Source of the DNA: Gammaproteobacteria bacterium
GTDB taxonomy: Bacteria > Pseudomonadota > Gammaproteobacteria > SpSt-1174
Direction: 5' to 3'
Assembly: GCA_037388465.1 (NCBI GenBank)
Contig: JARRKE010000014.1
Location: 19,848 to 83,847, forward strand
DNA length: 64,000 nt
The notes under the pieces are model-generated. The model saw only the letters and a program-made list of their open reading frames with translations, searched no databases and was not told the DNA's origin. Position 1 is the stretch's first letter. The number at the start of each line of letters is the position of its first letter. Of the stretch, positions 36-57,123 are shown in pieces. Position numbers and translations under genes: made by a program.

Positions 36-1457
36 TTGAGCGGCGACACCGGCAATTACCAGGGCACTGCCGTGCAGGACTTTCAATCCACGCAGGGACA
101 ACTGACCGAGGCGGGATACGAACACCGTTTCGGCTCCCGTTGGCGGGCGGCGGCGCGCATCGTTTCGCTGCATGGGCATGAGGATGTCGCGAACCACGAA
201 ACCGCCGTCGGGGCGGTGGAATACAACAATCGCGATAACAGCCAGGATTACCAGCTGCATGTCATGCAGGACAGCCTCGGACACAACGGCAGCTGGCTGG
301 ACACGAGATTCACCGGCCGGCGCTGGACGAACCGCTTCGGGCTGTACCGCATGGACCCCGGACTGCTGTGGACCGACGCCCCCATCATCAACGACACCCA
401 GGGCGTCTACGCACGCGCCGACCTGAGCCGCTCGTTATACAACGTCAACCTGGGCGGTGACTGGTCGCAAACCAACCTCAACGACGATCCCACGCTTGCC
501 GGCATCGATTACACCAACCTGTACGCCAACGGCAATTACCGGCTCAACTATAAGCTGACGATCGGCGGCAGCCTGACCTACCAGAATGCCGCCGCGCGCT
601 CGGGAACAGCGACCCAGGACTCGGATAGCACCTCGCTCTCCGGGCGCCTGAGCCAGCAGAGCTCGCTCGGCACCACGCGCTACCAGCTGACCTGGAACGA
701 AAACCACATGGGGAATTTCAGGGGACAGGGCAACAAACTCAGCATCGATCACGACTGGTATCCCAACAGTGCGCTGCAACTGACCACCTCGCTCAGCGGT
801 GAACGGGCGGACACCTCCGACGGCTCGACCGAGCGCCTGGATACCGGCGTCGTCTGGCGGCAGTCCGTGACGGGGAATTTCAACTGGTCAGGCGGCGTGG
901 GCTATACGCAGGTCACAGGTACCGGCGCGACGAATAATTTCAATGCCACGGTCCAGGGTGATTGGCAGATCAGCGACGAGTGGGCGGTCAGCCTGCGCGG
1001 CGGCTGGAACCAATTGAAATACCAGGACATCGTGTCGATCCCCGGCTACACCCCCACCGACCGGCAAACCGAAAGCAGCGTCTACCTCAGCGTGCGTTAT
1101 ACCCGCACCGAGGGCACTCCGCTGATCGCCTTCGGCCGCCGCTATGGCGCAACTGCCGGTTACGGCCGCGTCTCGGGCCAGGTCTTCCTGGACGAAAACC
1201 GCGACGGCATTCGTGAAGCAAACGAAAAGGTGCTCCCCGGCCTGACCGTCATTCTCGACGGCCAGTACCCGACCCAGACCGACAGTCAGGGACGGTTCAG
1301 CTTCGAGCCGGTACCGACCGGGCCGCACATGGTGCAGATTGCCATTCAGGACGTACCCCTGCCCTGGGGGCTGGAAAAGAACGACCGGTTCAAGGTTTCG
1401 GTGCCGGTCCGCGGCACGGCTGAACTGCCGATTCCGCTGGTGAAGTTGAATAACTGA
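36..1457 (+). CDS. Outer-membrane beta-barrel-like protein ending in an SdrD-B/Cna-B (carboxypeptidase-regulatory-like) domain; the 5' end runs off the window
   Basis: The ORF reaches position 1 with no start codon in the window. Its composition is rich in N/T/S/G/Y/W/Q with alternating hydrophobic residues, typical of beta-barrel OMPs. The C-terminal approximately 90 aa (SGQVFLDENRDGIREANEKVLPGLTVILDG...TQTDSQGRFSFEPVPTGPHMV) matches the SdrD-B / Cna-B-type fold signature. Whether it is an usher for the adjacent pilin genes cannot be decided by eye; it is convergent to them. Confidence 0.45.
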   Translation: MSGDTGNYQGTAVQDFQSTQGQLTEAGYEHRFGSRWRAAARIVSLHGHEDVANHETAVGAVEYNNRDNSQDYQLHVMQDSLGHNGSWLDTRFTGRRWTNRFGLYRMDPGLLWTDAPIINDTQGVYARADLSRSLYNVNLGGDWSQTNLNDDPTLAGIDYTNLYANGNYRLNYKLTIGGSLTYQNAAARSGTATQDSDSTSLSGRLSQQSSLGTTRYQLTWNENHMGNFRGQGNKLSIDHDWYPNSALQLTTSLSGERADTSDGSTERLDTGVVWRQSVTGNFNWSGGVGYTQVTGTGATNNFNATVQGDWQISDEWAVSLRGGWNQLKYQDIVSIPGYTPTDRQTESSVYLSVRYTRTEGTPLIAFGRRYGATAGYGRVSGQVFLDENRDGIREANEKVLPGLTVILDGQYPTQTDSQGRFSFEPVPTGPHMVQIAIQDVPLPWGLEKNDRFKVSVPVRGTAELPIPLVKLNN

Positions 1458-1730
1458 TTGCCGTGAGGAGTAAGGGGACAAACGTGAGGTGATAGGGGTA
1501 AGGAGTGAGGAGGTGGCAGTGTCTTTTCGCCTTACCCTTCACGTTTCACCACTCCCCCTCCCGTCTTGCCGAGCAGCCGATGGGTAGCTCGGTGAGAGGA
1601 AGACTGATGGCGATTTGTTAGGTTATTGGAATTGTTTCTGCATGCTTGGGGCCCAGTTAGACAGGTGATTGGTATTGTTTCGCACGCTATTGAGCTGGGA
1701 TTTCCCTATCTAACACCCATTGAAGCGTGC

Positions 1731-1975
1731 GAGTCTCTTTCTTTACTTGCCCAAAGAAAGAGACGAAAGAAAGGCGCCCCCACCGCCTTGGCCCTACGGG
1801 CTATCCTCGCATCCGCCTACTTGCGACGGGTCGGTTCGACACGACGTCCTCGGCAATTGCTCCTGCATTGCCCTACCTCCTGCATCCATGCAGTCGTGTC
1901 GTGACGAACCTCAGCCCGGCGTCCTTGCCGGGCTGACCCTGCAATCCAGCAGCTGCTCGGCAAGGCGGAACGGGG
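1731..1975 (+). ncRNA. Candidate structured ncRNA core (copy A) of the repeated element
   Basis: There is a perfect 12-bp hairpin at 1733-1764 (gtctctttcttt / aaagaaagagac). The homologous position in copy B is a perfect 13-bp hairpin of different sequence (ggtactttctctt / aagagaaagtacc), i.e. multiple compensatory changes. Additional conserved stems are cagcccggc..gccgggctg, ccttgccg..cggcaagg, and the near-palindrome ctgcatccatgcag. In a second stem a G/A difference between copies still leaves pairing possible as G-U only if the + strand is the RNA. Confidence 0.35.
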
Positions 1976-2026
1976 ATATTGGTAAGGCGTGAAACGTGAG
2001 GGGTAAGGCGAAAAGACACTGCCATC

Positions 2027-2082
2027 GCCTTACCCCTTACGCCTTACGCCTTACGCCTTACGCCTTACGCCTTACGCCTTAC
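2027..2082. repeat. Tandem heptanucleotide repeat (GCCTTAC)x8, one unit degenerate (CCCTTAC). It ends 2 nt before the stop codon of the convergent minus-strand chaperone-like gene
   Basis: Read directly: gccttac cccttac gccttac x6. It is the 3' terminal part of repeat copy A. Confidence 0.9.
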
Positions 2083-2084
2083 GA

Positions 2085-2894
2085 TTATTTCAATCGCGCA
2101 TCAACATCCTTCTGCCCACCATCCCAAAGGATGCGGCCCTTGAGATGCAGGGGCACGTGGATCTTGATCTTGGTATCCACCCCTTCGGCATTCATCGGCC
2201 AGATCGGCACCATGCGCGTCTGACCAGGCAGGATCGGCAAGGGCGCCACACTGAAATCCACCTGCTGGTTGGATGAATCCTGCCCCGACAGCATGCCCTG
2301 CGGCCGTCCGTGTGCGTTACCTTTGTTGGTGATTATCGCAACGGGGGTCAGATGCCCGTTGACCCGGTGCAGTTCCAGGCGATCCACCTTGAGCCGTGGA
2401 TGGGCGTCCCCGACGCGGACATAGACGATAACCGCGATCCGGCCCTCGACCGGAAACTCGATGTCGCCCGCCTTGGCCATGACGCTCTGATCGGCCGGAG
2501 AAAGCAACAAGGCCACCCGGCATTCCCCGGCCTTGGCATCCTTGGGCACATGCACCTCGAAGCGGTACAGGTGATCCGCCTTGGGCGCCAGACTCAAGTT
2601 ACGCCGCTCGATACGCACCCAGGGACGGCAACTGCCGGGCTGAAGTTCGGGCGGAAAGATCCTCACGCCACCATTGGGCTGCAGAGCCCAGTCGGCGGTG
2701 CGTACCCGCAATTTGGTCTCGTAAACGTCCGGGTTGGTGAGCCGCACCACCTGGCGCACGACCTGCCCGGGTTTGGCCTGCAATTCGAACCGTCCCGGCG
2801 CCACCATGAGCGTAAAGGTCTTGGCCGACAATGCCGGCGGCATCAGGCTCAACAGGGCCAGGCTGAACCATCCAATGGTTTTAAGGAGTTTCAC
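2085..2894 (-). CDS. Putative periplasmic pilus/fimbrial chaperone-like protein (signal peptide, approximately 269 aa), last gene of the pilin cluster
   Basis: It has an N-terminal signal peptide (MKLLKTIGWFSLALLSLMPPALSA) and the size typical of PapD/CsuC-like chaperones. It sits immediately downstream of three small secreted pilin-like genes with 4-bp overlaps. The fold assignment is an inference; it was not verified by motif. Confidence 0.4.
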   Translation of the reverse strand: MKLLKTIGWFSLALLSLMPPALSAKTFTLMVAPGRFELQAKPGQVVRQVVRLTNPDVYETKLRVRTADWALQPNGGVRIFPPELQPGSCRPWVRIERRNLSLAPKADHLYRFEVHVPKDAKAGECRVALLLSPADQSVMAKAGDIEFPVEGRIAVIVYVRVGDAHPRLKVDRLELHRVNGHLTPVAIITNKGNAHGRPQGMLSGQDSSNQQVDFSVAPLPILPGQTRMVPIWPMNAEGVDTKIKIHVPLHLKGRILWDGGQKDVDARLK

Positions 2895-3376
2895 GGTTGA
2901 ATCTGGATCTCGAATTCGGGTTTCAGGGTGATGGTGCCGGTCACGTAGCGTGCGTCCAGATGAAATGTCATGTCGAACAGGTCGCGCATGACGGCCTCGG
3001 TGATGGGGCCATTGTAAATGGGGACGGCTTCACCGGGAACTGCCGTCCCCGAAGCGAAGGTTCCGAGCTCGGTGGTCCAGTTGACGCGCAGACCGCCCGG
3101 CCGACTCAACCCCTGGGGGGAAAGCGGCATGCGCAGAAAGATCTGCGCATGCTTGCCGATATAGTCCTGGGTACGCAGGCGGATGTCGATCTTGACGTGG
3201 CCGACGATCGCATTGAGCTGTTCCGCGCTCAGTCGCCGACCCGGCGTCGGCACATAAGCCCATTGCAGTTGCGGGACAACGTTCTGTTGCGGGGAAAGGG
3301 AATCGTCCAGGCGCTCCATGGCGCCCGCCGCCGGCATCCAGAGCATTAACGCAAGCAGGAAGGACCAGGTCTTCAT
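2891..3376 (-). CDS. Small secreted protein (161 aa), a possible minor pilin-like subunit
   Basis: It has a signal peptide (MKTWSFLLALMLWMPAAGA). It is translationally coupled to the flanking genes (4-bp overlaps at both ends). Its C-terminal YVTGTITLKPEF resembles the Y-x-G-T-V-T motif of the neighbouring pilin-like proteins. Confidence 0.4.
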   Translation of the reverse strand: MKTWSFLLALMLWMPAAGAMERLDDSLSPQQNVVPQLQWAYVPTPGRRLSAEQLNAIVGHVKIDIRLRTQDYIGKHAQIFLRMPLSPQGLSRPGGLRVNWTTELGTFASGTAVPGEAVPIYNGPITEAVMRDLFDMTFHLDARYVTGTITLKPEFEIQIQP

Positions 3377-3936
3377 TGCATGGTCGCCGTGTAAGTGACC
3401 GTACCGGTATAGGTACCGGGCGCGACGACCTGGCTGTTGGCGTAATAGAAGGTCTGATCCACGTAAACCTGTTTTGAGCCGGTAAAGGTCAGCAAAACCT
3501 GGTTCGCCGATCCGTCGAAACGCCCCGAAGGAATATCACTGTCCGAAGAGGTCCAGCCAATCTCGGTAAAAGGAATGGTATACGTGTTGTTGCTGAGGGG
3601 CGTGCTCGAATTGGCCGTCAAGGTCACCGTCACGCCGCCGAGAAACTCGGCCCACAGGGAGGATTGCGCGGCGACCGACACCCGGACCGGCTGCGACGTG
3701 GCCTGCAGAGGCGTGTTGTCGCCCACCTGGCCGGCGGGCACCTGAAAACTGACCGTATCGACGGAACCGGTCGGGCTGCCCACCTGAAGCACCAAACGCC
3801 CCGTAAAGAACTTGTAGACACCGAGCGTCACCGTTACCGCGTGGGCCGGACTGGAAAACAAAAACAGGCAACCCAGCATCAGCCAGGTTGCCTTTTTCAA
3901 TCCTGAAGGTATGAAGCGCATTTTAGTTATGACCAC
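3373..3936 (-). CDS. Secreted pilin-like protein, resembling the spore-coat-U (SCPU) / Csu-type archaic chaperone-usher subunits
   Basis: It has a signal peptide ending ...SSPAHA. Its C-terminal motif YANSQVVAPGTYTGTVTYTATMQ is shared with the upstream gene product (YANNSVVPAGTYTGQVTYTAATP). The likely start is GTG at 3936, with AAGG about 7 nt upstream. The next in-frame ATG (MRFIPS...) would give a start at 3921. Confidence 0.5.
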   Translation of the reverse strand: MVITKMRFIPSGLKKATWLMLGCLFLFSSPAHAVTVTLGVYKFFTGRLVLQVGSPTGSVDTVSFQVPAGQVGDNTPLQATSQPVRVSVAAQSSLWAEFLGGVTVTLTANSSTPLSNNTYTIPFTEIGWTSSDSDIPSGRFDGSANQVLLTFTGSKQVYVDQTFYYANSQVVAPGTYTGTVTYTATMQ

Positions 3937-36017: not shown

Positions 36018-36975
<958 letters not shown>

Positions 36976-36976
<1 letters not shown>

Positions 36977-37335
36977 TGTTGGCATTGACCCGTTGGATGA
37001 CGCTTGCCGGCGTCGCGGGCGTGACCCTCAGCCTGGCGCTGCAGATCCTGCTGCCGGTCACGGGGCCCCACCTCGGTCTGCGCAGCTTCCTGCTGCTGCT
37101 CCTGCTCACCCCGCTGGTCGCGGGGCTGCCGGGACTGGTCGCCGCCAGACCCTATACCCATGCCTGGATCAGCATGGCGGCATTGTTCTATTTCACCATC
37201 GGGGTATGGAACGCAGCCGGCAGCGCGTCGCGCCCCTGGGGCATTGCGGAGATCATCGCCAGCCTGCTGCTGTTCATCGGCGCCGTCCTGTTCACCCGGC
37301 TCAAGGCCCGCAGCCTGCGCGACAGCGCCCAATGA
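36976..37335 (+). CDS. DUF2069-like small membrane protein
   Basis: The ATG overlaps the wrbA stop (ATGA). It has 3-4 TM helices. A conserved wrbA-DUF2069 pairing is known in pseudomonads. Confidence 0.6.
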
Positions 37336-37614
37336 GGCCTCTCTACACCCCGTCTTTTGGTTTGGCTCTTCACACCTGACGCTTCACCGATTAATCCCCG
37401 TTGGCCGCGCCCGGAACGCCCCGCAATGGACTGACCAGGAGCCGTCAGGGCGCGTGACGGATCACGCGCGTCTTTCGTCAGGCCAGGGATGGCCTGTCGA
37501 AAGACCTCCGGTCAGACCGCGGGGTGTGAAGGTGATGTGCAGGAATGCACGAATGCCGACGCACCAAGGAGGCAGCGCGTTGGTACAGCGCGGCCGTGGG
37601 GCGCCCTTTCTTCC

Positions 37615-37646
37615 GCCGGGTTCTTTGGGCGAGCAAAGAACCCGGC
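37615..37646. other. Perfect 13-bp stem-loop (gccgggttctttg ggcgag caaagaacccggc) in a 390-bp non-coding region
   Basis: Read directly. There is no adjacent U-tract on either strand. Confidence 0.4.
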
Positions 37647-37726
37647 TCGCGCATTGAGATAAAAGTCTATTAGAAACGCACGCCCATAAATGCGCGAAAC
37701 AATCCCACTAAGCTAACTAAGAGCGT

Positions 37727-38428
37727 TCAGAGATCCCCGCCCAACACCTGCTTGATGAAGGGAACGGTCAACCGGCGCTGAGCCGCCAGGCTCGCCGCAT
37801 CCAGCCGGTCCAGCACCCCCAGCAGCGTACCCAGATCACGCGGATAACGGTGCAGCAGATAGCGTCCCGCCTCGACGGGCAGGGCCAGACCGCGCGCCTG
37901 GGCACGCTGGCTCAGGGCCTCCAGCTTGGCCTCGTCGTCCAGGGGATGCAGCTGGAAAACCGCCCCCCACTGCAATCGTGACGCCAGATCGGGCAGGCCG
38001 GCACGCAAGTGGACCGGGCTCAGCGCCGCGCTCATCAGCAGCGGCTGCTCGTGCAGACGCAGATCGTTGATGAGATTGAACAGGCCCCGCTCCCACTGCG
38101 GATCGCCCAGCACCGCATCCACATCGTCCAGGCAGATCACGCCGCGCCCGAGCATGCCGTCCAGGATGTCCGGTCCATGCACCCCCAGCGTCCGCAGGGG
38201 CAGGAATACCGCACCCGGCCCCTCGCCGGCCGCCAGATGGCAGACGGCCTGCAGCAGGTGGCTCTTGCCCGCGCCGGCACCGCCCCATAAAAAGATCTGC
38301 AGCTCGCCCCGCCCCAGCCCCAGGGCCTGCAGCGCGCCGACGACCGGCCGGTTGGGCCCCGCGTAATAGGTTTCGAACACCGCGCTGTCGCGCAGGCCGA
38401 CGTTGAGCGCCAACTGTTCGGCCATCAC
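37727..38428 (-). CDS. hda: DnaA regulatory inactivator Hda
   Basis: A DnaA-like AAA+ core with Walker A degenerate to GGAGAGKSHL; 233 aa. It is in synteny with perM/purMN. Confidence 0.8.
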   Translation of the reverse strand: MMAEQLALNVGLRDSAVFETYYAGPNRPVVGALQALGLGRGELQIFLWGGAGAGKSHLLQAVCHLAAGEGPGAVFLPLRTLGVHGPDILDGMLGRGVICLDDVDAVLGDPQWERGLFNLINDLRLHEQPLLMSAALSPVHLRAGLPDLASRLQWGAVFQLHPLDDEAKLEALSQRAQARGLALPVEAGRYLLHRYPRDLGTLLGVLDRLDAASLAAQRRLTVPFIKQVLGGDL

Positions 38429-56008: not shown

Positions 56009-56593
56009 TCATATGACCGGGATGCCTGCAGCGGCCAGCAACTGTGCCGTTTCGAACAGCGGCAGGCCCATGACGCCGCTGTAGCTGCCCTCCAAACGGT
56101 CGATGAAGGCGGCGGCCAGCCCCTGGATGGCATAGGCACCGGCCTTGTCCATTGGCTCGCCGGTAGCCACATAGGCCTCGAGCTCGGCCTGATTCAGGAT
56201 CCGGAACCCCACCCGGCTGTCACTCAGCCGCAGCGCCACATCATGCCCGGCGGCCAGCGCCACAGCGGTATAAACATCGTGCGTCCGACCGCTCAGCATC
56301 CCCAGCATGCGCACCGCATCGGCCCGGTCGCGCGGCTTGCCCAACACCTCGTCGCCGACCACCACCACGGTATCCGCCCCCAGCGCAGGCAATCCCTCGC
56401 TTACGGCCAGTCCGGCCTGCGCCTTTTCCAATGCCATGCGCTGCACGAAATCCAGTGGCGACTCGCCGCGCCGGCGGGTCTCGTCGACATCCACCGGTTG
56501 GCGGCGAAAATTCAGACCGAGCTGATCCAGCAACTCCCGGCGGCGGGGAGAAGCGGAGGCCAGTAGAAAAGTAGATTGTGGTGATTGTTTCAC
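56009..56593 (-). CDS. maf: Maf-like nucleoside triphosphate pyrophosphatase
   Basis: It carries the LLASASPRRRELL motif; 194 aa. It is adjacent to rng. Confidence 0.85.
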   Translation of the reverse strand: MKQSPQSTFLLASASPRRRELLDQLGLNFRRQPVDVDETRRRGESPLDFVQRMALEKAQAGLAVSEGLPALGADTVVVVGDEVLGKPRDRADAVRMLGMLSGRTHDVYTAVALAAGHDVALRLSDSRVGFRILNQAELEAYVATGEPMDKAGAYAIQGLAAAFIDRLEGSYSGVMGLPLFETAQLLAAAGIPVI

Positions 56594-56599
56594 TTTGGT

Positions 56600-57121
56600 C
56601 GGTACTTTAGAGGTTGGTGGTTTTGTTTTATATGTTTTGAGTTTTCGTTTTCGGTTGGAAAGGCGCGGGGTTTTGTTGTGCGGCCTTGTCTACAGTTTCG
56701 CATTAGAAATGGAAGTATTTGAATTTCGCGCTCTTGAGGCCGGGATTTTTTGTCTGATGCGTTCGCACAGCGCGAGGTACTTTCTCTTGCGTGCCCAAGA
56801 GAAAGTACCCAAAGAGAAGGGCACCCCCACCGTCTTGGCCTTCGGCTTCCCTCACAACCGCTGACTTGCGACGGGCACGGTCCGACGCGACGTCCTCGGC
56901 AACTGCTCCTGCGTTGCTCTACCTCCTGCATCCATGCAGTCGTGTCGCGGCGAACCTCAGCCCGGCGTCCCTGCCGGGCTGACCCTGCAAGCCACCGGTT
57001 GCTCGGCAAGGCGGGACGGGGTTTACGGTGAAGGGTGAGACGTAAGGCGTGAGGAGCAATTCGGCGCTTCGTTTGTCACCGCACCTCTCATCTCCTTACT
57101 CCTCCCCCTTCACACCTTACC
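56600..57121 (+). repeat. Copy B of the two-copy structured repeat element: a G+T-rich leader, a conserved core at 56774-57020, and heptamer-rich inverted 3' flanks ending 3 nt before the rlmH stop
   Basis: The core aligns with 1731-1975. The 3' flank carries GTGAAGG/GTGAGAC/GTAAGGC/GTGAGGA units followed by CTCCTTA/CTCCTCC/CCCTTCA/CACCTTAC units, i.e. inverted CCTTAC-type heptamers. Confidence 0.6.
56774..57020 (+). ncRNA. Candidate structured ncRNA core (copy B)
   Basis: There is a perfect 13-bp hairpin at 56776-56809, with a conserved loop end (tgccc) and a stem that compensates relative to copy A. Conserved downstream stems and palindromes are identical or near-identical to copy A. Confidence 0.35.
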
Positions 57122-57123
57122 GA

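Follow-up and report, generated by a model that had tools for sequence, protein, structure and literature searches.

We analysed a stretch of 64,000 nucleotides (the window) from contig JARRKE010000014.1 of an uncultured gammaproteobacterium, which carries an intergenic repeat rich in GGA motifs and, nested inside two of its copies, a module of 47 nt. An earlier note on this DNA had described the repeat as a two-copy element on one strand and had proposed a BLAST search for further copies. BLASTN aligned copy A (1729-2008) with copy B (56772-57054) over 285 nt at 81.8% identity, so the same-strand repeat of about 250-280 nt stands, but the search also returned a third, inverted relative (copy C). 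With an inverted fragment (A'), the family in the window comprises three copies and one fragment within 64 kb (Table 1). Copy B lies between the stop codon of rlmH (57124) and the start of maf (56593), both minus-strand genes, and copy C between the convergent genes DUF2069 (36676-37335, plus strand) and hda (37727-38428, minus strand). Fragment A' stands directly 3' of the stop codon of the open reading frame (ORF) 36-1457 (plus strand). Copy A is downstream of three minus-strand ORFs (2085-2894, 2891-3376 and 3373-3936) whose stops and starts overlap; this chain gave no NCBIfam match, its first ORF (2085-2894) had no Pfam match either, and it looks like an uncharacterised operon.

A MAFFT alignment of A with B revealed differences that include insertions and deletions of 1, 2 and 3 nt. 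Plus-strand ORFs overlap both copies (1720-1992 and 56750-57031), as would be expected if the repeats encoded a small protein. However, only 14 of 36 residues align and the insertions and deletions destroy the frame, so that the ORFs drift apart, in line with the earlier note, and a coding function is exceedingly improbable. The stem cagcccggc/gccgggctg and the palindrome ctgcatccatgcag are present in both copies; the best-conserved part of the alignment, including this palindrome, belongs to the nested module of 47 or 48 nt. A further stem thought to be conserved, ccttgccg/cggcaagg, did not hold up: copy B reads ccctgccg, the pairing competes with the cagcccggc hairpin, and minimum free energy (MFE) folds leave it unused. 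In A as in B, a long, interrupted outer helix closes the domain in the MFE and the centroid fold alike. Compared with dinucleotide shuffles, fold z-scores were -5.9 (plus strand) and -5.3 (minus strand) for copy A and -3.3 and -4.6 for copy B; copy C reached -6.4.

A scan of the window at Rfam gathering thresholds, another check proposed at the outset, gave a single match, to TwoAYGGAY (RF01731). It is full-length, lies on the minus strand of copy B (56847-57009) and scores 44.4 bits against a gathering score of 43. Copy A matched the same model on the minus strand with 37.5 bits, below the gathering score (1825-1941, model positions 43-116). Copy C did not match TwoAYGGAY, and its best match was RsmW (RF02809), at 37355-37510 on the plus strand, where it reached 28 bits (gathering score 52; E = 0.0079, 500 nt searched). 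RsmW and TwoAYGGAY both belong to clan CL00106, and the best matches of A, B and C all fall on the strand rich in GGA (the GGA strand). The earlier note had named a match to a known Rfam family as an outcome that would refute it; such a match was obtained, on the strand opposite to the one it proposed, and the claim that the element is new in kind is not sustained. On this strand, copies A, B and C carry 8, 7 and 7 GGA motifs as compared with 2, 1 and 2 on the opposite strand, about 3 being expected, and several sit in terminal loops (AAGGAC/AGGGAC, AUGGAU, AGGA, AGGGAU and AGGAAU). The loops of copy C on its GGA strand are AGGGAU, AGGAAU and CGGA (ATTCCT and ATCCCT on the other strand). Weinberg et al. 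(2010, PMC2864571) classed TwoAYGGAY among probable RNAs without a cis-regulatory role; its two terminal loops read AYGGAY, its P1 helix is often very long, and it occurs in Clostridia, in gamma-proteobacteria and in gut metagenomes. Gardner and Eldai predicted it to be a CsrA-binding RNA (PMC4333381). RsmW is derived from a 3' untranslated region (UTR), has 7 GGA motifs and binds RsmA (PMC4950607).

In the RF01731 alignment of copy B both P1 arms are paired, and in those of A and B an unaligned insertion of 48 nt occupies the loop of the model's second hairpin. This hairpin hosts the module, and its stem reads CACGAC/GTCGTG in A and CGCGAC/GTCGCG in B (CGCGAC-GTCCT-module-GTCGCG), an A-T to G-C compensatory change. 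The earlier note had paired a G/A difference in this region as a G-U that implied transcription of the plus strand. That register borrows the last five nucleotides of the module, GTCGT; in the correct register the change is strand-neutral. The earlier note had read the element as a new structured noncoding or small RNA made from the plus strand, a reading that can still point to the plus-strand fold of copy A (z = -5.9) and to one base-of-stem position of the module, which, read on the plus strand, pairs as G-T in 72 copies and as G-C in 22. Beyond the loss of the G-U argument, the other wobble counts are about 3 versus 6, neither A nor B has a plus-strand Rfam match, the plus strand is antisense to the genes flanking B, its exposed UCC loops form no known recognition motif, and no promoter was found for it. 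We therefore consider a plus-strand RNA very unlikely.

The likeness to TwoAYGGAY extends beyond the modelled domain. On the minus strand of copy A, the pyrimidine tract UUUCUUUC is followed by a polypyrimidine/polypurine hairpin (hairpin 1), and the same architecture is found in B, in C and in the TwoAYGGAY loci of Psychromonas ingrahamii. In the Stockholm alignment of Weinberg et al., the 3' flank of the P. ingrahamii members reads GGCAUUCUUUUG GUUACUUUUCUUUUG-CUGUU-AAAGAAAAGUAAC ACGCCGUC (-ACGCC), followed by GCGAAAG..ACAA motifs; the minus-strand counterpart in the window is GGUGCCCUUCUCUUUGG GUACUUUCUCUUG-GGCACGC-AAGAGAAAGUAC CUCGCGC, followed by GCGAAAC/GCGAAAU. The flanks of these seed members and those of the window elements thus have the same architecture, in which a pyrimidine tract comes first, then a polypyrimidine/polypurine hairpin, and then a CGC-helix accompanied by GCGAA motifs. 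The long-range helix beside hairpin 1 of copy A, whose 3' arm on the minus strand is the GCGAAACAAU motif, has counterparts in B (CGCGCT/AGCGCG) and C (CGCGCAT/ATGCGCG). Motifs resembling ATTGTTTCGC (GCGAAACAAU on the minus strand) also lie beyond hairpin 1 in all copies (1620-1700, 56575-56760 and 37655-37715); copy A has two of them, and those of B are degenerate and GT-rich.

The stems of hairpin 1 had been presented as textbook covariation. We indeed found different perfect stems, of 12 bp in A (1733-1744/1753-1764) and of 13 bp in B (56776-56788/56797-56809), in which about half of the positions differ and both loops end in tgccc. Hairpin 1 of copy C (37616-37645) has yet another perfect stem, ccgggttctttg/caaagaacccgg, with the neighbouring tract ggaagaaaggg and then gcgcccc. 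In every copy compared (A, B, C and P. ingrahamii), tract and purine arm are parallel complements (Table 1). The tract co-varies with both arms of hairpin 1 and is a mirror repeat of the pyrimidine arm (1733-1775, 56776-56821 and 37605-37645), although its low complexity mostly makes a mirror repeat inseparable from a shifted direct repeat. This three-way co-variation of low-complexity tract and arms explains stems that are completely different and yet perfect without textbook RNA covariation, and such palindromes fold equally well on both strands. Hairpin 1 with its tract has the potential to form a Y.R-Y triple helix or H-DNA, and its recurrence marks hairpin 1 as a part of the TwoAYGGAY repeat of Gammaproteobacteria that is conserved downstream of the motif.

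On the other side of the domain, a hairpin made of heptamers separates the element from a stop codon. The heptamer array reported previously, CGCCTTA in 8.3 units (2026-2083), is part of the hairpin of copy A. A perfect 23-bp inverted repeat and heptamers of opposite polarity had been likened to the ends of a MITE (a miniature transposable element with inverted repeats), but both derive from A'. This fragment is an inverted partial copy of the start of the element, in which 1449-1549 pairs with 1989-2089 (101 nt) and 1553-1596 with 1933-1976 (44 nt) at 77% complementarity; its heptamer units are gtgagg/gtaagg, then ccttac/cttcac. The 23-bp repeat is the core of the inverted duplication formed by A and this truncated second copy in opposite orientation, and not a transposon terminus. 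Hairpins of heptamers in opposite polarity (GTAAGGN/NCCTTAC) lie between stop codon and element at 1461-1560, 1976-2083 and 57023-57122, and within the window they occur solely beside these elements. The heptamer half-sites look like those of the GacA/UvrY box, which we take to be TGTAAG-N6-CTTACA, and the hairpins were considered as such a box; the spacing does not fit, and this assignment was rejected. In four of four cases (ORF 2085-2894, ORF 36-1457, rlmH and DUF2069), the heptamer hairpin abuts the stop codon of a gene to which the GGA strand is sense.

Table 1. Coordinates, strands and supporting evidence of the features of the repeat family and its nested module
Feature	Position	Strand	Description	Evidence or context
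Copy A	1725-1985	minus (GGA strand)		BLASTN and alignment
Copy B	56768-57030	minus	hairpin 1 (56776-56809), tract (56810-56821), GGA-hairpin domain	Rfam match
Copy C	~37385-37730	plus (GGA strand)	inverted relative to A and B; more diverged, without module	BLAST 37592-37640 and sequence
Fragment A'	1449-1596	plus	inverted partial copy of element start; heptamer hairpin, then CCCCCTCCCGTCTTGCCGAGCAGC	inverted-repeat search
Heptamer hairpin, copy A	1976-2083	minus	gtaaggc-type units, then CGCCTTA x 8.3 (2026-2083, TRF)	abuts stop of ORF 2085-2894 (minus)
Heptamer hairpin, copy B	57023-57122	minus	directly 3' of rlmH stop	aligns with heptamer region of A
Structured domain, copy A	1790-1985	minus	closed by long outer helix; loops AAGGAC, AUGGAU, AGGA	Rfam 1825-1941, MFE folds
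Hairpin CAGCCCGGC/GCCGGGCTG, copy A	1912-1935	minus	loop GTCCTT (plus) = AAGGAC (minus)	aligns to first AYGGAY hairpin of RF01731
Host hairpin of module, copy A	1840-1903		CACGAC (1840-1845), loop GTCCT (1846-1850), module, GTCGTG (1898-1903)	sequence; Rfam alignment
Module, copy A	1851-1897	plus	CGGCAATTGCTCCTGCATTGCCCTACCTCCTGCATCCATGCAGTCGT; hairpins GCAAT/ATTGC and CTGC/GCAG	nhmmer 1849-1897, E = 3e-14
Module, copy B	56897-56943	plus	in loop of host hairpin	nhmmer 56895-56943, E = 5e-15
Hairpin 1 and tract gaaagaaagg, copy A	1733-1775	minus	stem gtctctttcttt/aaagaaagagac, loop acttgccc	12-bp inverted repeat
Long-range helix beside hairpin 1, copy A	1682-1731	minus	cgcacgc (1682-1688)/gcgtgcg (1725-1731)	sequence and alignment
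Tract/purine arm, copy A			UUUCUUUC/AAAGAAAG	
Tract/purine arm, copy B			UUCUCUUU/AAGAGAAA	
Tract/purine arm, copy C			UUUCUU/AAAGAA	
Tract/purine arm, P. ingrahamii (three copies)			UUCUUUU/AAGAAAA; CUCUUUU/GAGAAAA; CUUUUU/GAAAAA	

The best reading of the large element is that it represents a lineage-specific variant of the known TwoAYGGAY/RsmW kind of gammaproteobacterial intergenic repeat, and we infer that it is transcribed and bound by CsrA. The existence of the family, its architecture, its placement on a consistent strand and its likeness to the Rfam clan are shown by the sequence. Starting right after the stop codon, the GGA strand continues the sense of the upstream gene, and the transcript of the element would most likely be the 3' UTR or an intercistronic part of that gene. 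Along this strand the hairpin of GTAAGG/CCTTAC heptamers comes first. It is followed by the domain that the long outer helix closes, with A(N)GGA(Y) exposed in the loops of its inner hairpins, then by the pyrimidine tract and hairpin 1 with its polypyrimidine and polypurine arms, and last by the helix ending in GCGAAAC. Such an RNA could bind CsrA/RsmA and act as a decoy for the protein or decide the fate of the mRNA, like the 3'-UTR-derived RsmW. The placement after stop codons, the GGA loops, the published CsrA prediction for TwoAYGGAY and the precedent of RsmW favour a platform of this kind.

The window elements share with TwoAYGGAY the minus-strand match, the long outer helix around two adjacent hairpins with GGA hexaloops, the multicopy, gammaproteobacterial and non-cis-regulatory character, and the downstream order of tract, hairpin and helix seen in P. 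ingrahamii. They differ in their loops (A[A/G]GGAC and AGGAC), in the 47-nt insert within the second hairpin loop, in their high GC content and in the heptamer hairpin upstream. With RsmW and other Csr/Rsm small RNAs (CL00106, PMC4950607) they have in common about 7-8 GGA motifs, several of them in loops, and a probable 3'-UTR location with no terminator in between; unlike RsmW, they score far below its gathering score and are multicopy and dispersed rather than confined to a single locus. No GacA-type upstream box was identified at the large element.

The earlier note had also proposed that a small mobile element carries the structured RNA. A repeated, structured, non-coding element at gene ends is indeed present and a small mobile element is involved, but the latter is the 47-nt module nested inside and not the whole repeat; the earlier note had seen this part only as a conserved palindrome. 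Exactly two modules occur in the window, one in A and one in B. A search of plasmids with copy B gave a 52-nt match of 92-94% identity in Pseudoalteromonas chromids and a 37-nt match inside pglX of Moellerella and Salmonella plasmids. The exact 21-mer CTACCTCCTGCATCCATGCAG was found in at least 120 stretches of species-representative genomes. Carriers among the matches listed are Methylobacter, Pseudomonas and relatives, Shewanella, Endozoicomonas, Cellvibrionaceae, Lysobacterales, Steroidobacteraceae and Mariprofundaceae. The same 21-mer is present on nine viral or proviral contigs of IMG/VR and absent from 50,697 cultured phage records. Metagenome-assembled genomes (MAGs) of Mariprofundaceae, which are Zetaproteobacteria, carry the module at two loci (L058 and L069), which suggests horizontal spread beyond Gammaproteobacteria. 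Our search of the literature for the module sequence, its translations and related terms found no description, and the family is apparently undescribed. Two of the loci collected contain known RNA features unrelated to the module, namely two divergent cobalamin riboswitches in a Methylobacter locus (L044, 2518-2728 on the minus and 2883-3111 on the plus strand) and a group II intron domain (L006, 958-1032).

Stacked copies gave the consensus CGGCAAYTGCTCC(N)TGCRTTGCT-CTACCTCC-TGCATCCATGCA-GTCGT; a second type differs in the left half. The module measures 48 nt in 71 copies and 47 nt in 30, and its ends are sharp, conservation giving way to random sequence exactly at both boundaries. Both of its hairpins covary, with 10 of 12 pairs changed on both sides and 92.5% of cells paired, a level reached by none of 500 shuffles, and diverged copies show right-hairpin stems as different as CGGC/GCCG, CTAC/GTAG, CTAT/ATAG and CTCC/GGAG. 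The loops TCC(N)TGC and ATCCAT and the linker CTCTACCTCC are invariant. Wobble counts over 95 modules carry no strand signal except at the one base-of-stem position mentioned above.

Filled and empty alleles demonstrate mobility directly. In pglX, which encodes the BREX-1 methyltransferase, a Moellerella plasmid (NZ_CP093250; locus L002, 2990-3037) holds a full 48-nt module in frame (DDCMDAGGRATQDAKA). Here the filled site, GGTTGT[48 nt]CTGCATT, is shared with a Salmonella plasmid (L125), and genes of E. coli that are about 80% identical (L124 and L126) read GGTTGTCTGCATT and lack exactly those 48 nt. In coaBC of Methylobacter-like genomes, 91%-identical homologues are without a 16-residue insertion that others have. 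At the DNA level these alleles hold no module (L137), one (L030, 2061-2110) or two (L136), corresponding to insertions of 16 and 32 residues, and the second module sits inside the first, right after GCTCT^AC, with no duplication. Neither the pglX nor the coaBC alleles show a target-site duplication. Removal of the module in silico restores plain hairpins in the window, CACGAC-GTCCT-GTCGTG in A and CGCGAC-GTCCT-GTCGCG in B. Elsewhere it restores a repetitive extragenic palindromic (REP) sequence, GCCCT|CTCCC..GGGAGAGGG, and the Pseudoalteromonas palindrome GTGTTCT|AGAACAC.

The target is defined on one side only. The left flank is YYCT, with T at -1 in 100 of 106 copies, C at -2 in 85 and a pyrimidine at -3 in 99, and the right flank is random. 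In 11 of the 106 copies the module stands at the 3' edge of a 4-5-nt ..YCCT hairpin loop, whereas controls gave 1.9 such cases on average and 5 at most. Head-to-tail arrays of modules were also seen (L039 3379-3505, L082 3953-4047, L008 5480-5600, L103, L121 and L019). In Shewanella (L039, L090 and L113) arrays are centred in a species-specific palindromic repeat of about 100 nt, gttctgtgccttcta..tagaaggcacagaac. From crude ORF calls, orientation relative to co-directional flanking genes is unbiased (19 versus 21). The module is found more often than expected between convergent genes (22) and less often between divergent ones (6). Inside ORFs the module appears in both orientations and several frames. 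The module hence behaves as DNA, and selection of the module itself as a sense RNA is unlikely. These results establish it as an independent, non-autonomous mobile element with a target preference.

A competing account of the 47-nt core is that it is conserved as a functional CsrA-binding cassette and not for transposition. It would provide two to three sites on the minus strand (CAUGGAUG, CAGGAGG and CA(N)GGAGC), the first of which fits what we take to be the RsmE/CsrA consensus, CANGGANG. The invariant loops and linker carry GGA on one strand as the stems covary, and AGGA loops are complementary to ..YCCT, the target that the module prefers. Against this account stand the random orientation relative to transcription and the presence in ORFs in both orientations and several frames. 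In addition, tandem modules give no Rfam match to Csr/Rsm families, and the sharp ends, flank preference and insertion polymorphisms reflect the constraints of transposition. We consider a selected cassette unlikely.

The mobile module inserts in a single orientation, directly 3' of YYCT, and does not duplicate its target. We suggest that it moves by single-strand, hairpin-guided cut-and-paste, for which an HUH/Y1-type enzyme related to those of IS200/IS605 or RAYT would act in trans. Such a mechanism is suggested by the orientation-specific insertion 3' of a motif, the lack of duplication, the structure-conserved subterminal hairpins and the target-like right end. These traits are shared with insertion sequences (IS) of the IS200/IS605 family, PATEs and RAYT-mobilised REPINs, and the similarity of the conserved right end, ..TCGT, to the target (YYCT, TTGT) would account for the head-to-tail arrays. 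Unlike IS200/IS605 elements, the module has two hairpins that are unlike each other, and no Y1 transposase was found linked to it. A classical MITE differs too, as the module makes no target duplication and its termini, CGGC.. and ..GTCG(T), pair over at most 4 nt. IS1397 and ISKpn1, as well as certain members of the IS110 family, target REP palindromes, or the bacterial interspersed mosaic elements (BIMEs) built from them, and are full-size, autonomous IS with transposase genes. The module resembles them in preferring the centre or loop of palindromes, such as the REP site GCCCT^CTCCC, the Shewanella and Pseudoalteromonas palindromes and ..YCCT loops. ORFs resembling RAYT (Y1 transposases) were seen 2.5-3.5 kb from the module at two loci (L012 6342-6620 and L088 4038-4301), no more than expected by chance.

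REPs, intragenic REPs and Rickettsia palindromic elements (PMC3733652) offer another comparison. Like the module, they are short palindromes at gene ends that form clusters, dimers and tandem arrays and occasionally lie in frame within genes, and CGTC REPs likewise have no dedicated transposase nearby. REP superfamilies are defined by a terminal GTAG or CGTC tag beside a single palindrome of 5-13 bp, within 20-40 bp in all (PMC3733652). The module, by contrast, begins with CGGC and ends with GTCGT without either tag, has two unequal hairpins with invariant loops in 47-48 nt, possesses a defined YYCT 5' flank, and is near-identical between orders and even between classes; a REP family, in contrast, is confined to its species.

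Taken jointly, the data are explained best by a GGA-hairpin repeat of the TwoAYGGAY/RsmW kind in 3' UTRs with an independent mobile module nested in it, an explanation to which we give a little better than even credence. A number of observations weigh against it. For the large element, only copy B passes the gathering score, with a margin of 1.4 bits; at the second position, where the AYGGAY loop has a pyrimidine, a purine stands in the host loops AAGGAC (A), AGGGAC (B) and AGGAC, and AUGGAU is found only in the nested module's own hairpin. The GGA density of the copies falls at about the 95th-99th percentile of 200-nt windows, folding of A and B is equally good on both strands, and the four placements after stop codons are a small sample. 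Neither sigma-70 promoters nor intrinsic terminators at the copies exceeded shuffle expectation, a single weak terminator-like site being present on the minus strand of copy A only, and csrA is absent from the 64-kb window. In metagenomes of the JGI, the 19-mer TGCCGGGCTGACCCTGCAA gave 14 chance matches in coding DNA and no further copy of the large element. For the module, wobble counts give no clean strand signal, orientation relative to genes is random, and 47 nt is below any characterised IS200/IS605 derivative. ORF clustering over about 130 loci in search of a linked transposase returned only ubiquitous families (ABC ATPases and histidine kinases), and tblastn with IS200 TnpA and E. coli RAYT hit two loci only.

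Further searches gave no more copies of the large element: BLAST of its non-module parts against 120 loci gave no match, a regular expression for the hairpin-1 tract matched the window solely, and a plasmid search with the P. ingrahamii flank found nothing. TwoAYGGAY was not detected in 18 other module-bearing loci, and the Pseudoalteromonas and Moellerella loci had no Rfam match. As the closest RlmH is only 68% identical, orthologous empty sites for A, B and C are out of reach.

Part of this counter-evidence would suit a different explanation, in which the element in its entirety would be palindromic repeat DNA, selfish or neutral, and nothing more than a REP/BIME-like mosaic at gene ends whose GGA loops and Rfam matches are incidental. 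Its hairpins would be kept for a DNA enzyme or as a DNA structure, and any effect as RNA would be generic, such as 3'-end stabilisation or termination. The equal fold quality of both strands and the marginal Rfam scores agree with this, as does an element that is a mosaic, is partly duplicated in inverted orientation and is host to another mobile element. A location at gene ends that avoids divergent regions, as counted for the module (22 convergent versus 6 divergent), is typical of REPs, and REPs are known inside genes and without a dedicated transposase (PMC3733652). It accounts less readily for GGA loops that keep to a single strand throughout the copies and also in P. ingrahamii, a distant relative, for a GGA strand that is sense to the abutting upstream gene in all four cases, and for three independent best matches to one Csr/Rsm clan; the element also lacks the GTAG or CGTC tag that defines REP superfamilies. 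On balance we regard a purely DNA-level repeat as possible but rather unlikely.

The window bears on TwoAYGGAY, so far an RNA family without an assigned function and with only a published prediction of CsrA binding. It adds a GC-rich variant from an uncultured gammaproteobacterium and indicates that the motif forms just the central part of a far longer repeat, the architecture of which is kept from Psychromonas to this MAG. Together with the consistent placement right after stop codons, these additions make the hypothesis of a 3'-UTR CsrA decoy directly testable. The module, for its part, packs insertion polymorphisms, a defined target and duplication-free insertion into 47 nt, and it lies in frame in a BREX methyltransferase gene and in coaBC; in many genomes of Gammaproteobacteria it probably gives rise to spurious ORFs and to misassembly. 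Its mover enzyme, once identified, could reveal a minimal substrate of hairpin-guided DNA transposition. A bolder combination, which we hold to be doubtful, would make the module an undescribed, ultra-small mobile family of many gammaproteobacterial orders and Zetaproteobacteria, moved by an HUH enzyme into ..YCCT and spreading CsrA/RsmA sites, with a triplex at hairpin 1 as a further possibility. Were it true, every module copy would bring two to three optimal GGA hairpin sites into UTRs, repeats and coding sequences, and the Csr/Rsm regulon would be rewired.

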